53,756 bases of DNA from a virus, in IMG/VR virus record IMGVR_UViG_3300018411_000004; one strand, given 5' to 3'. The notes beneath the pieces were generated by a model. The model searched no databases, had not been told where the DNA came from, and saw nothing but the letters and a program-made list of their open reading frames with translations. The position numbers were made by a program, and so were the translations under genes. Below are positions 19,637 to 29,261 of the stretch, in pieces (position 1 is the stretch's first letter; the number at the start of each line of letters is the position of its first letter).

Positions 19637-20171
19637 GGGTAGTCACGCTTTTCTTGGAGCGAGTAAATATCACTGGATAAATTATGACGAAAATAAAGTT
19701 GCAGATTCATATTTAAGATTCTTGGCAAGTCGAAAAGGAACTGAGCTTCATGACTTTGCGGCTCGATGTATTTCTTTGAAACAGAAGTTACCAAAATCCA
19801 AGAAGACTTTAAATGCTTATGTAAATGACGCTATAGGTTTTCATATGATTCCAGAACAAACCTTATATTTCTCAGACAATTGTTTCGGAACAGCTGACGC
19901 TATAACCTTTGCTAATAATACTTTGAGAATTCATGATCTGAAAACCGGAGTTATTCCAGGACATATGGAACAGCTTGAAGTTTATACCGCGTTATTCTGT
20001 TTGGAGTATGTGATCGATCCAAAAGATATTAATATCGAATTACGTATTTACCAGAATGATGATATTCTGATTCATAATCCTGATGAGGATGATATTCGTT
20101 ATGTGATTGATAAAATGGTTACGTTTGATAAAATCATTACCAAAATAAAGATTGAGGAGGGTATGGCTTAA
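19608..20171 (+). CDS. PD-(D/E)XK-family nuclease-like protein
   Basis: 187 aa, RBS gaggagg. TADAITF...IHDLKTG motif. Confidence 0.5.
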   Translation: MIFNKHFNLEGSHAFLGASKYHWINYDENKVADSYLRFLASRKGTELHDFAARCISLKQKLPKSKKTLNAYVNDAIGFHMIPEQTLYFSDNCFGTADAITFANNTLRIHDLKTGVIPGHMEQLEVYTALFCLEYVIDPKDINIELRIYQNDDILIHNPDEDDIRYVIDKMVTFDKIITKIKIEEGMA

Positions 20172-22957
20172 TGTATTATTTCGATGATGAGTTAGAACAT
20201 GTTGGAACTAAGAAACATTCAGGCCGATATCCTTGGGGGTCTGGTAAGAATCCATATCAACATAGTGGAGACTTTCTTAGTCGAGTTGAAGAACTTTCTA
20301 AGAATGGTATTTCTCAAAAAGATTTAGCTGATATTTTAGGTATGTCGACAACCGATTTAAGAATGCAGTTGAGAGTTGCCAATCATGAGCGACGCGAATT
20401 ACAAAGAGATCGAGCTAAATCTTTGAGAGCTGACGGTAAGAGTTTACAAGAGATATCTCAGATTATGGGTTTTAAAAATGACTCATCTGTAAGATCTTTA
20501 TTGAACGATAATACCGCAGCTAATAAGAATAAAGCTAAAGTAACTGCTGAGATTCTCAAGAAAGAACTCGAGAAGAAGGGTGACATGCTTGAAGTTGGTG
20601 CAGGTGTTGAAAGAGTTCTTGGTGTATCTAAATTAACTCTTAAAGAAGCGTTATTTACCCTCGAGACGGAAGGTTATAATGTTTATAAAGTTGGAATACC
20701 AGATATGTCTAAACCTGGTAGGCAGTCCAACACAGCTATATTAGCTAAGAGTCATGTTCCGTATGCCGATGCTTATGCGAAGATGGAAACCGTTCAGTCT
20801 GTTGGTGACTATCATTCCAAAGATGGTGGTGACACCTTTAGTCAAAAGAAATATCCAGCTAGTGTTGATTCTAAAAGAATTCATGTTAGATATGGAGATC
20901 AAGGTGGCGCTGCTAAAGATGGAACTATTGAGTTAAGGCGAGGTGTTAAAGATTTAGATCTTGGAACATCTAGTTATGCTCAGGTTCGTATATTAGTTGA
21001 CGGCACTCATTACCTTAAGGGTATGGCTTTATATTCCGATGATATGCCGGATGGCGTTGATATCGTATTTAACACAAATAAGAAGTCTGGAACGCCTAAG
21101 CTAGATACTTTGAAAGAAGTTAAATCTGATAAGTCGAACCCTTTTGGAGCGTATATTAAGGCTCAAGGTCAGAGTACCTATATTGACAAAGATGGTAAAG
21201 AAAAACTTTCAGCTATCAACAAGTTGAAAGAAGAAGGTGACTGGGATAAGATGTCTGAAAACTTATCTTCTCAGTTCTTATCTAAACAACCAATGCAGCT
21301 AATCAATAAACAGTTGAATCTAACATATGCCGATGCTCGAGCATATTTAGATGAGTTGAACTCTTTAACCAATCCGACTATTAAGAAAAAACTCTTATTA
21401 GATTTTGCTGGTAACTGTGAAAGTAAAGCTGTTCATCTTAAAGCGGCTGCACTACCAAGACAGAAAACTCAGGTTATATTACCCTTGACCGGTATATCTG
21501 ATAAGGAAATCTACGCGCCAAACTTTAAAGATGGTGAAAAGGTATCTCTTGTTCGATATCCTCATGGTGGTATATTTGAGATCCCGCAATTAACAGTTAA
21601 CAATAAGAATGCTCAAGGCAGAAGAGTTCTTGGAACCAACGTTAAAGACGCTGTTGGTATACACCCAAACGTTGCTGAAAGATTATCTGGAGCCGACTTC
21701 GATGGCGATCAAGTAATTGTTATTCCAGAATCATCAAAGGTTCATGTTAAATCTAAAGCTCGATTATCTGGGCTTATAGACTTTGATGGAAAGACAGCAT
21801 TCCCACCCAAGACTGAAGACACTTTATATGTGAAGAAAGGTCCTGATGATAAGACTCCACTGTACAACGGTAAGAAAATTTTATCTAAAGTCATGACTAA
21901 AGAGAACACTCAAAGAGAAATGGGTATCGTATCAAATCTTATTACTGATATGACTTTAAGGGGCGCTTCTGATGAGAAGTTAACGAGAGCTATCAAGCAT
22001 AGTATGGTCGTTATTGATGCTGAGAAACATAAATTGGATTATAAAGAATCCGAAAAGGTTAATCGTATCAAAGAACTTAAGAAAGAATATCAGTTACAGT
22101 ATGACGAAAATGGTAAGGAAAAATATGGTGCGTCTACGTTACTCTCTCGTAGAAAGCAAACCGTTGACGTTGATGAGCGTAAAGGTAGCGGCGTTATTGA
22201 TCCAGATACAGGTGTTGTGACATATAAGACTTCTGGTAGAGAATATAAAGAAATTGTTAAAGATAAAGCTACAGGTAAAAGCGTCGAGACTGGAAATATG
22301 ATCAAAGCTAAGTCTAAAGTTAAATTGGTATTAGCAGTTGATGATGTTAAGTCTTTATCTTCTGGAACTTTAGAAGAAGATGCATATGCTGACTATGCAA
22401 ATAAGATGAAAGCTTTAGCGAATGAAGCTAGGAAATTATATAAGTCTACAGGTAACTTAACATATTCTAAAGAAGCCCGTATAAAATATGACAATGAAGT
22501 TCAAGCGTTAAATGCTAGACTTAATATCGCTGCAATGAATGCTCCCAAAGAAAGACAGGCTAGGATAATTGCTAATGGAGTCCTTAAAGCTAAGAAGCAG
22601 GAATATCCTGAGCTGGTCAAAGATAAGAAAGAATCTAAGAAGATATATCAGCAGGCTATGGAGGATGCACGAGCAGCTGTCGGATTGAATAGCAAGGCAG
22701 ATAAGATAGTCTTCTCAGATAAAGAATGGGAAGCCATACAAGCTGGCGCTATCACTGATAATAAGTTAGCTCAGTTACTACGTTATGCTGATGAGGATAA
22801 GTTTAAGGAGAGAGCACTACCCAGAGCTACCACTGAACTATCCCCCGCTTCTATTAGTCGTATCAAAGCTATGCAACAAAGTGGTTACACTAATGAACAG
22901 ATAGCTTCACGATTAGGTAAGTCTGTATCGACAGTGTTTAAGTATCTTAATCAATGA
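20171..22957 (+). CDS. Single-polypeptide two-barrel RNA polymerase (YonO/RdRP-like, beta-prime-type catalytic loop) with HTH modules and an N-terminal leader motif
   Basis: 928 aa. VSLVRYPHGGIFEIP...AVGIHPNVAERLSGADFDGDQVIVIPE aligns with bacterial beta-prime NRAPTLH...[25 protein letters not shown]. DFDGD lies at nt 21695-21709. HTH-like segments near aa 45-110 and at the C-terminus (GYTNEQIASRLGKSVSTVFKYL). Confidence 0.65.
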   Translation: MYYFDDELEHVGTKKHSGRYPWGSGKNPYQHSGDFLSRVEELSKNGISQKDLADILGMSTTDLRMQLRVANHERRELQRDRAKSLRADGKSLQEISQIMGFKNDSSVRSLLNDNTAANKNKAKVTAEILKKELEKKGDMLEVGAGVERVLGVSKLTLKEALFTLETEGYNVYKVGIPDMSKPGRQSNTAILAKSHVPYADAYAKMETVQSVGDYHSKDGGDTFSQKKYPASVDSKRIHVRYGDQGGAAKDGTIELRRGVKDLDLGTSSYAQVRILVDGTHYLKGMALYSDDMPDGVDIVFNTNKKSGTPKLDTLKEVKSDKSNPFGAYIKAQGQSTYIDKDGKEKLSAINKLKEEGDWDKMSENLSSQFLSKQPMQLINKQLNLTYADARAYLDELNSLTNPTIKKKLLLDFAGNCESKAVHLKAAALPRQKTQVILPLTGISDKEIYAPNFKDGEKVSLVRYPHGGIFEIPQLTVNNKNAQGRRVLGTNVKDAVGIHPNVAERLSGADFDGDQVIVIPESSKVHVKSKARLSGLIDFDGKTAFPPKTEDTLYVKKGPDDKTPLYNGKKILSKVMTKENTQREMGIVSNLITDMTLRGASDEKLTRAIKHSMVVIDAEKHKLDYKESEKVNRIKELKKEYQLQYDENGKEKYGASTLLSRRKQTVDVDERKGSGVIDPDTGVVTYKTSGREYKEIVKDKATGKSVETGNMIKAKSKVKLVLAVDDVKSLSSGTLEEDAYADYANKMKALANEARKLYKSTGNLTYSKEARIKYDNEVQALNARLNIAAMNAPKERQARIIANGVLKAKKQEYPELVKDKKESKKIYQQAMEDARAAVGLNSKADKIVFSDKEWEAIQAGAITDNKLAQLLRYADEDKFKERALPRATTELSPASISRIKAMQQSGYTNEQIASRLGKSVSTVFKYLNQ

Positions 22958-22970
22958 AAGGAGTAAGACT

Positions 22971-28763: not shown

Positions 28764-28775
28764 AAAGGATTTAAT

Positions 28776-29261
28776 ATGTGGCAATATAATCATTTACACC
28801 CGAATGATGAACTTATTCATTATGGTAAAAAGGGAATGAAATGGGGGCATCGGACAGGTTCGAAACCCGCAATCGTTAGTAATGTTGTTCGTGGACGACT
28901 TATAGGTAAATACGGGAATACGAAATACAACCAGGCAAGAGCTCAAAAGAAAGGTCGAGTAAAATCGGCAGCAATCGGCGTTGGTAATCAGATAGCAGAT
29001 AATTTTACACTTGGGTATAGACAAGTAAAAGACGCTAAAAAAATAACTGGCGATAAATCAAAAACAAAGGTTGGAAGCACTATTGCTAAGAATTTAATAC
29101 TTGGCGGCTACGGCACAACCAAGTACAATCAACTCCGTAAAGATAAGCAACCGATTGGAGAATCAGTTATCAAAGCTTTTGGTGCTACCATTGCAAACGA
29201 TTTAACCCTTGGGTATGTTCAAGCATACGATTCTCAACAAAAAGGTAAATTCTTAAGATAG
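28776..29261 (+). CDS. Leader-motif family protein 4 (internally duplicated basic domain)
   Basis: 161 aa. MWQYNHLHPNDELIHYGKKGMKWGHR. Internal repeat GKYGNTKYNQ...NFTLGYRQ / GGYGTTKYNQ...DLTLGYVQ. Confidence 0.7.
   Translation: MWQYNHLHPNDELIHYGKKGMKWGHRTGSKPAIVSNVVRGRLIGKYGNTKYNQARAQKKGRVKSAAIGVGNQIADNFTLGYRQVKDAKKITGDKSKTKVGSTIAKNLILGGYGTTKYNQLRKDKQPIGESVIKAFGATIANDLTLGYVQAYDSQQKGKFLR

Follow-up and report, generated by a model that had tools for sequence, protein, structure and literature searches.

Why would a phage carry, among its packaging genes, a set of mutually unrelated genes that all begin with nearly the same short peptide? The question is raised by a viral DNA of 53,756 nucleotides (nt), IMG/VR record IMGVR_UViG_3300018411_000004 (this whole analysed stretch is called the window below), in which four open reading frames (ORFs) at positions 24396, 25517, 25935 and 28776, all on the plus strand, open with a motif of about 20 residues, HYGxKGM(K/R)WGxR, that is catalogued in Pfam as DUF7211. 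We propose, with a probability of roughly 0.6, that this peptide is the capsid-loading and ejection tag of the siphovirus lineage to which the window belongs.

A first-pass annotation of this DNA had described a leader common to five proteins. Four of them indeed carry it: the proteins of 243 residues encoded at 24396-25127 (leader 24396-24464, LLHYGVKGMKWGVR, His12), of 138 residues at 25517-25933 (GTG start; leader 25517-25582, LTHYGKLGMRWGVR, His8), of 297 residues at 25935-26828 (leader 25935-26009, LTHYGVKGMRWGHR, His12) and of 161 residues at 28776-29261 (leader 28776-28859, LIHYGKKGMKWGHR, His15), while the fifth, a predicted RNA polymerase, shares only its first half. The Pfam model PF23847, which has 25 positions and a gathering score of 27 bits, matches the four leaders above that score (37.4, 31.2, 35.1 and 30.2 bits; E-values of 1.6e-9, 1.4e-7, 8.6e-9 and 2.9e-7, respectively). 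A leader hidden Markov model (HMM) gave them 46-50 bits, against 6.7 bits for the highest-scoring other segment and a maximum of 7.7 bits on 20 shuffles; since this model was built with the window sequences included, it is the Pfam match that provides the independent test. No further copy was found elsewhere in the window by a six-frame regular-expression search. The DNA of the four leaders is just 63-74% identical among themselves and their protein sequence is near-invariant, showing that conservation acts at the protein level and does not reflect recent gene conversion.

The leader is the most conserved segment, yet its predicted local distance difference test (pLDDT) values are below 50 in the AlphaFold models of the polymerase (residues 1-29) and of the predicted ADP-ribosyltransferase encoded at 25935 (residues 1-46), where it is not packed against the cargo; the second model draws a weak beta-hairpin across the motif. 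The leader therefore bears the signature of a short linear motif, which is disorder combined with conservation. That the motif lacks a described targeting role, as had been suggested from the sequence, holds insofar as Pfam assigns no function to DUF7211, and it was already on record as a Pfam family, just as the phage group and its polymerase were already known. Our literature search found no relevant publication on DUF7211/PF23847 or the motif, and no paper connecting the motif with virions, the polymerase or toxin cargo; an Arthrobacter phage survey and a shared-ancestry preprint mention neither the motif nor promoters or proteomics.

Past about residue 25, the four tagged proteins are unrelated to one another, and the earlier descriptions of their cargo hold. 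The cargo encoded at 25935 is predicted to be a C3-like (R-S-E) ADP-ribosyltransferase: it carries the YRS ... STS ... QE series, its family keeps YRS, STSTS and NQE (the Arg, Ser-Thr-Ser and catalytic Glu motifs) invariant, and PF03496 is found on homologues that are about 70% identical. Its structural model is of low confidence (pLDDT 56), and the top 30 PDB matches found with it by Foldseek are all C3-, VIP2- or iota-type ADP-ribosyltransferases (E-values of about 1e-4, probability of about 1), the best being C3bot, C3larvin, Plx2A, VIP2 and CDTa with template modeling scores of 0.3-0.48; a PDB sequence search with the ADP-ribosyltransferase profile found nothing. Behind its leader, the protein encoded at 25517 has a stretch of basic residues, the conserved motif LSxxELQxxxxRLNxExQY and, at the C-terminus, a hydrophobic tail (a 19-mer). 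The one encoded at 28776 has, after its leader, an internally duplicated basic domain, whose halves are 37% identical over 60 residues (E-value of 3e-12), confirming the duplication noted in the first-pass annotation. The cargo encoded at 24396 belongs to phrog_7502 (E-value of 4.6e-22), a family without assigned function.

These four cargo types differ in how widely they occur in viromes, where a scan of IMG/VR with a DNA pattern of the motif only returned at least 120 loci. Among the matches listed, to which all virome locus counts below also refer, the 25517 type is a conserved core member (85 of 120 loci), the 24396 type is moderately common (homologues in about 18 loci), and the ADP-ribosyltransferase and 28776 types are rare. 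A tblastn search with the 25517 core protein matched just 14 phage records because this protein is too divergent and short. Gene content also shifts over short distances: tagged genes vary in number and order between closely related phages, and in relatives with an ADP-ribosyltransferase of 72-75% identity there are four or six tagged genes, differently ordered.

The window itself holds traces of such turnover. A perfect 35-nt direct repeat flanks the first tagged gene on the plus strand, with a left copy at 24381..24415, spanning the 3' end of the HNH gene, the ribosome-binding site and the start of 24396, and a right copy of 100% identity at 25109..25143, spaced by 728 nt. Since phage 1706 has its connector gene directly after HNH, 24396-25127 looks like a recent 728-bp cassette insertion. 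The repeat contains the first six codons of 24396, which the 3' end of HNH reads in a different frame. Further downstream, a 51-residue ORF (26849..27004, plus strand) is the decayed front of a sixth family member, judging by its sequence: it is an N-terminal remnant in which the pre-leader segment is kept and leader and cargo are lost. It is the ORF that follows the ADP-ribosyltransferase gene, next to which a polymorphic toxin system would have its cognate immunity gene. Intact counterparts in two other loci (L126:8906-9442 and L128:2160-2597) have in common MDK.Y..F..RMGSFED followed by HFGI.GM.WG. The pre-leader segment of this gene family, of about 45 residues, is unusual.

Beyond the window, the diversity of cargo is far larger. 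The 328 cargo modules of the virome loci fall into 153 clusters, of which 123 are singletons; modules were clustered alone, whole tagged proteins having merged into one cluster. Pfam searches of 150 cargo representatives identified Ntox50 (E-value of 7.6e-20), Gln_amidase (three members) and ADPrib_exo_Tox, besides P-loop NTPases, a CW_7 repeat and acetyltransferases of the GNAT type, and left the majority of the representatives without a match; a 2H phosphoesterase domain also occurs among tagged cargo, and large proteins with several tags bring additional GNAT and Gln_amidase domains. The expectation of polymorphic cargo including toxin domains was thus borne out, and the cargo looks, from its sequence, like delivered effectors. 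A search with the leader profile against 1.84 billion representatives returned 42,226 clusters (at 50% identity) at E <= 1e-3 and 13,025 at E <= 1e-10, and in a set of 5.8 billion proteins the same profile found short fragments only, with no domain architectures.

The motif is tied to the packaging genes, among which the first-pass annotation had placed it. TerL is present in 110 of 120 IMG/VR loci, the connector in 84, HNH in 78 and the portal in 75, and 119 loci hold 319 motif copies, 1-8 per locus, 238 of which lie no more than 40 residues past the preceding stop. When only the 52 loci with the full module were considered, all 154 motifs were on the TerL strand and 148 of them stood between HNH/connector and portal, a descriptive figure given that loci were centred on motif matches. 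Applied to 185,579 species genomes, the same motif scan found 63 loci, 55 of them with module genes, and these include prophages in complete Clostridia genomes. ReqiPepy6 has seven tagged genes consecutively between TerL and portal and an eighth motif copy within a 2H-phosphoesterase fusion. A contig from an Anaerovoracaceae metagenome-assembled genome (L155:4965-7556) has four consecutive DUF7211 genes and no TerL, portal or connector homologue in its 8-kb locus; it may represent a different phage type with the same tag.

The phage group of the window was defined in a preprint (10.1101/842583). All genes of the window are on the plus strand and 123 nt are identical at its two ends (1-123 and 53634-53756), indicating a circularly closed assembly that covers the whole phage genome: the window is a complete siphovirus of about 54 kb from the cross-phylum "1706 / FP_oengus / actinophage AU-BI" lineage. 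In a scan of 50,697 phage records, the DUF7211 motif was found at 772 places in 239 records and the polymerase family in 250 records, with a common genus profile (Arthrobacter 95, Gordonia 55, Streptomyces 54, Curtobacterium 7, Microbacterium 4, Rhodococcus 4 and Faecalibacterium 2); Lactococcus contributes 8 records with the motif and 13 with the polymerase. As the portal shows a matching distribution by tblastn, head module, polymerase and motif are inherited as one block. Some members of the lineage are temperate: FP_oengus has an integrase (L192:146-1387), and integrated copies were seen in AP018533.1 (L132/L176) and in the Hungatella hathewayi chromosome (L162).

A link to the virion comes from phage 1706. 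In its record (EU081845.1), the depositors named orf6, 7, 11, 12, 17, 62, 71 and 75 "structural protein" and labelled assignments made from sequence "putative"; going by this wording, the "structural protein" calls appear to rest on virion mass spectrometry. Two of these genes concern us directly. The product of orf7, located between connector and TerL, contains two DUF7211 copies (Pfam E-value of 6.9e-11), and orf75 encodes a homologue of the predicted RNA polymerase, of 1029 residues and with the N-terminus SLQHYGTKRHSGRYPWGSG; the ReqiPepy6 record likewise reads "similar to 1706_gp75, structural protein".

The polymerase of the window (20171..22957, plus strand, 928 residues) is predicted to be a single-subunit enzyme of the YonO/RdRP-like type. 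It matches phrog_4291 end to end with an E-value of 0 and has helix-turn-helix (HTH) domains at both its N- and C-terminal sides, with Pfam matches to Sigma70_r4_2 and other HTH models towards the C-terminus, and an ADFDGD loop that is invariant in 30 homologues, as is the N-terminal motif; its AlphaFold model has a pLDDT of 73. The family had been proposed as an RNA polymerase from HHpred and its DxDGD motif (10.1101/842583), and we regard the label as a good prediction from sequence, the Pfam RdRP match being below its cutoff (17.4 against 23.8 bits). The looser leader that had been noticed on this protein is real. It occupies residues 1-30 (20171-20260, plus strand, ELEHVGTKKHSGRYPWGSG), is strongly conserved in orthologues as L-x-HYG-x-(K/P)-R-x-SGRYPWGSG, and aligns with the leader profile in hhalign over 14 columns (xxDxLxHYGxK) with a probability of 89.7% and an E-value of 1.9e-6. 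By these alignments the polymerase leader is a divergent variant, half of which is shared with DUF7211.

Natural fusions connect the two versions. The metagenomic chimera P0349 (1128 residues) begins with a canonical DUF7211 leader, MNPVAEDILMHYGIKGMKWG (E-value of 2.7e-14), continues with the glutamine-deamidase toxin domain Gln_amidase (E-value of 9.8e-8) and then has the polymerase's own leader, LIHYGVKRRSGRYPWGSG, followed by the polymerase, and P0301, a metagenomic polymerase homologue of 951 residues, has its half-leader duplicated; both junctions fall in the shared DILxHYG segment. Taken with the hhalign result and the common distribution, P0349 argues that the polymerase is part of the same system as the tagged proteins.

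If the polymerase entered the cell with the DNA, the early genes might be expected to bear its promoters, and the window contains a candidate for these. A 28-nt motif, CGCGAAWWWWACAYAYCMTTATATGAAG, occurs 11 times with at most three mismatches where none is expected by chance; one site is counted twice through the terminal redundancy, leaving 10 unique sites, all on the plus strand. Candidate early promoters are found at 39..66, 1128..1155, 1393..1420, 51612..51639, 52138..52165, 52473..52500, 52773..52800, 53134..53161 and 53397..53424, the last five each preceded by a terminator, and a candidate early/middle promoter at 12452..12479. Nearly all copies have a hairpin-plus-T terminator before them and a small gene after them, in the region that runs from 51.6 kb to 1.4 kb, and the late region of the window (23-48 kb) has no copy. 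A weaker variant (19222..19250, plus strand), also with a terminator hairpin before it, stands upstream of the operon that encodes endonuclease, exonuclease and polymerase.

Relatives have a counterpart. FP_oengus (L192, L001), whose polymerase is 51% identical, uses the version CGCGAAAAAWWCAG...CTTTATGGARG, with seven copies in its early region, one of them exactly upstream of the polymerase operon (L001:11040), and one more in the middle region; four further loci (L059, L137, L145 and L166) have members of the motif family. The conserved block lacks sigma-70 geometry, and some sites also fit TTxACA-N17-TATAAT. We rejected a sigma-70 reading, which leaves the conserved spacer block, the FP_oengus version and the copy abutting a tRNA-like gene unexplained. 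We infer that the 28-nt motif is a candidate promoter for the phage polymerase, and its pattern fits, short of proof, a polymerase available at the very onset of infection.

The tRNA-like gene in question begins where the first promoter motif ends, 2 nt further on (68-138, plus strand; Rfam score of 44 bits), and its anticodon loop is unusual, UGAAAAC, in which position 33 is a G. This loop recurs in a second tRNA-like stretch at about 150-232 on the same strand. ARAGORN found no tRNA in the window, rotated sequence included.

In the mechanism that we propose, the tag would be a short linear docking motif that recruits proteins into the assembling head, which they would leave with the DNA at the next infection. 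The late operon, besides HNH, connector, TerL, portal and a protease-capsid fusion, would encode a variable set of tag-cargo proteins, and the flexible tag, acting independently of the fold of its cargo, would bind inside the procapsid, its likeliest partner being the portal or else the fusion's protease/scaffold part. The polymerase would be loaded through its sister tag, L-x-HYG-x-K-R-x-SGRYPWGSG, and on infection would start at the 28-nt promoters that precede the early genes and its own operon, while enzymes such as the C3-like ADP-ribosyltransferase would act on host targets and the core member encoded at 25517, with its hydrophobic tail, may help to form or anchor the ejection path. Since the tagged genes stand in the late operon and have no early-type promoter, their placement would be sensible if the proteins act in the next cell.

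Location, toxin-type cargo and the names given to the 1706 proteins thus favour the capsid-targeting and ejection signal that the first-pass annotation had imagined, and a number of observations weigh against it. A simple N-terminal address would not be expected inside proteins, and about 25% of motif copies are internal; the best matches of the leader profile are proteins of 300-1,569 residues with 2-5 tag copies, so chained units are part of the picture. There are also tag-only ORFs of 47-70 residues on long contigs, and many ORFs of 47-90 residues, such as P0053, P0055 and P0106, are made up of the tag and a conserved extension, WGVRRYQNKDGSLTxAGKxRY; some of these are on contigs of 56-72 kb and are therefore not merely contig-end fragments. 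The idea that polymerase and other cargo share one and the same tag did not survive: the polymerase N-terminus is divergent and is missed by both the DUF7211 Pfam model and the canonical leader HMM. The label of that protein is itself qualified by Foldseek, which gave no significant PDB match to its model and ranked beta'/Rpb1 chains on top at E-values of about 0.1. The virion presence of 1706 orf7 and orf75 is the wording of a database annotation, and 1706 orf62 and orf71 (L194:553-831 and 5159-5512), also named structural, are small, lie outside the morphogenesis module and have no tag. Given the FP_oengus integrase and the prophage copies, host transcription must suffice at induction. Inheritance of head module, polymerase and motif as one block means that phyletic patterns are unable to separate "binds the head" from "works with the polymerase". 

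The main rival, which we consider unlikely, is that the peptide docks onto a partner other than the capsid, for instance a host protein, the complex of the phage polymerase or the membrane where DNA enters or is replicated; tagged proteins would then work where they are made, and their 1706 homologues would reach virions by other means. The strict co-occurrence of motif and polymerase across the scanned phage records is what one would expect from such a partnership, as is the toxin domain fused straight to the polymerase in P0349; the aromatic and basic residues in which the motif abounds are frequent in interfacial or protein-binding motifs, and tag-only micro-ORFs could be competitors or regulators. 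However, a tag that binds the polymerase would be an odd thing for the polymerase itself to bear in its own version, the genes belong to the late packaging operon and not to the early genes with the promoter motif, toxin-type enzymes are of no obvious use late in a cell that nears lysis, and orf7 and orf75 of 1706 are annotated as structural.

Less likely again is a processing module, in which the peptide would be a recognition or cleavage site for the prohead protease or the junction of a polyprotein and would serve to separate chained units instead of docking them, a role that would be compatible with packaging, as in T4. The natural chains of tag-cargo units, each with a tag at its start, would be explained in this way, and an HK97-type protease is at hand, fused to the adjoining capsid protein. 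Against this, the 238 copies at the very N-terminus have nothing upstream to cut.

We give a still lower probability to the peptide having no signal function and being a hotspot of duplication and recombination that is kept for its ribosome-binding or start context. The perfect repeat around one cassette, the apparently recombinant structure of P0349 and P0301 within the DILMHYG segment and the MWQYNH common to two window genes would all be at home in such a scenario, which is contradicted by leaders that diverge in DNA while their protein sequence hardly changes and by a peptide preserved both in phages of Actinobacteria, with about 65% GC, and in those of Firmicutes, with 38% GC, at internal positions too. 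This persistence in spite of DNA and GC divergence indicates purifying selection on the peptide and not on the DNA. Finally, a Gram-positive secretion, membrane-insertion or cell-wall signal (KxYKxGKxW/YSIRK, Sec, type VII secretion or choline-binding) is very improbable, because the N-terminal position, the basic and aromatic composition, the Firmicutes and Actinobacteria hosts and the CW_7 repeat on one virome cargo are outweighed by the lack of any NCBIfam or Pfam match to signal or cell-wall models, by the absence of a hydrophobic core after the motif in most members and by the implausibility of an RNA polymerase and of toxins acting in the cytoplasm (ADP-ribosyltransferase, deamidase) as secreted cargo. 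The signal-peptide reading was dropped when no KxYKxGKxW/YSIRK model of NCBIfam or Pfam matched.

Capsid loading, the reading that we prefer, directs attention to the head genes around the tags, all on the plus strand. The head-tail connector (25161..25520; PF24829 Phage_connect_2, E-value of 1.7e-34; phrog_4247) lies between the first two tagged genes, and the terminase large subunit (27018..28763) between the remnant and the fourth; the latter has 70.7% nucleotide identity to Arthrobacter phage terminase genes, and TerL Pfam domains were found on its L126 orthologue. The portal (29288..30514; TIGR01537 portal_HK97, E-value of 2.4e-13; tblastn matches in 245 phages annotated "Portal protein") is followed directly, in the same frame and 3 nt apart, by a fusion of HK97/S78-type prohead protease and major capsid protein (30518..32257; TIGR01543 over residues 8-127 and TIGR01554 over residues 363-574), which bears the annotation "major capsid and protease fusion protein" in orthologues. 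Portal and fusion are both candidate docking partners for the tag, and the fusion might alternatively process it. Neither a separate scaffold gene nor a MuF gene was identified in the head module, and the five proteins and their neighbours gave no MuF match at E < 0.1, in agreement with the earlier remark that no MuF/gp7-like gene is visible. Relatives have an extra, conserved gene between portal and protease-capsid fusion (L126:13032-13871, L128:8034-8714 and L002:21319-21969) that is absent from the window and encodes a YDPxKAxEYYxxxRxLKGR motif with no Pfam match.

Between the polymerase operon and the packaging operon is a non-coding gap of 439 nt (23223..23661), which contains an inverted repeat of about 28 nt (23461-23490 / 23601-23628) and a G6...C5 tract. 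ReqiPepy6 has its cos terminus at the equivalent place, and the gap is probably the cos/pac region.

We hold more tentatively, at somewhat less than even odds, the broader proposal that one peptide of about 20 residues is a general loading and ejection signal that serves a YonO-like polymerase, which would begin the infection at its own 28-nt promoters, together with a freely exchangeable arsenal of toxins and anti-host enzymes in a very large lineage of phages of Actinobacteria and Firmicutes. If it is true, these siphoviruses would be protein-injection devices with a programmable cargo tag, and a common gut and soil phage lineage would bring its own polymerase and deliver enzymes that vary from phage to phage. 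T4, N4 and crAss-like phages already exemplify the principle, which is undescribed for these siphoviruses; the tag is new and very short. Such a role would reveal what a Pfam DUF of tens of thousands of members does and would account for the odd series of unrelated genes from terminase to portal in hundreds of sequenced actinophages. It would also point to a large untapped catalogue of injected effectors and supply a compact peptide with which phage particles could be loaded with proteins of choice. The claim is directly testable in cultured relatives, including 1706, FP_oengus and the SEA-PHAGES clusters AU, BI and DJ.

Among known systems, T4 offers a close parallel, with capsid-targeting sequences on its internal proteins IPI-III and on the Alt ADP-ribosyltransferase. 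In both cases a short N-terminal peptide is common to unrelated polymorphic proteins, which in T4 are packed into the head and injected and which are known here from their genes; both include an ADP-ribosyltransferase among the cargo, and gene sets differ between close relatives. The tags themselves have no sequence similarity, and in T4 the tag docks on a dedicated scaffolding core and is removed by gp21, whereas here there is a protease-capsid fusion and no scaffold gene was identified. Moreover, the DUF7211 tag is also found internally and in tandem units, and its phage is a siphovirus of Gram-positive hosts.

The MuF (SPP1 gp7-like) minor head proteins, which are fused to polymorphic toxin domains, resemble the tagged proteins in combining a constant N-terminal module with variable C-terminal toxin domains, in the position of their genes next to the portal and in their overlapping toxin families (ADP-ribosyltransferase, deamidase, Ntox). 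They differ in that the tagged proteins have no Phage_Mu_F domain and rely on a peptide of about 20 residues instead of a domain of about 100-300 residues, that several tagged genes are present per genome and that the tag is shared with a polymerase. Encapsulin cargo-loading peptides and the C-terminal targeting tail of the HK97 prohead protease provide another precedent, being usually C-terminal and acting on cargo that stays inside. They have in common with the proposed tag that a short transferable peptide docks diverse cargo inside a shell of HK97 fold, and they differ from it in their usual C-terminal position, in their sequence and in a cargo that is not ejected.

Polymerases carried in the particle are known as well, the N4 vRNAP being one of them. 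The crAss-like phage phi14:2 has a virion RNA polymerase of the RdRP/two-barrel type, gp66 (10.1101/2020.03.07.982082), and P23-45 is a siphovirus with an RNA polymerase fused to the tape measure (PMC10770324). The system described here is like these three in having an in-particle polymerase and phage-specific early promoters, both as candidates. It differs by an enzyme of about 900 residues that is YonO-like, has HTH domains and is not fused to the tape measure, and by a loading that would depend on a peptide shared with other cargo, virion presence being taken from the 1706 annotation. YonO of the Bacillus prophage SPbeta, an RNA polymerase of the two-barrel type that consists of a single subunit, has a DxDGD catalytic loop, and the polymerase predicted at 20171 would belong to the same broad family. 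To our knowledge, YonO transcribes late genes and has been reported neither as a virion protein nor with this tag or flanking HTH domains. In sequence, the tag is unrelated to the T4, MuF and virion-polymerase systems; its closest catalogued match is Pfam DUF7211, of which the four window leaders are members and the polymerase variant stands outside the model.

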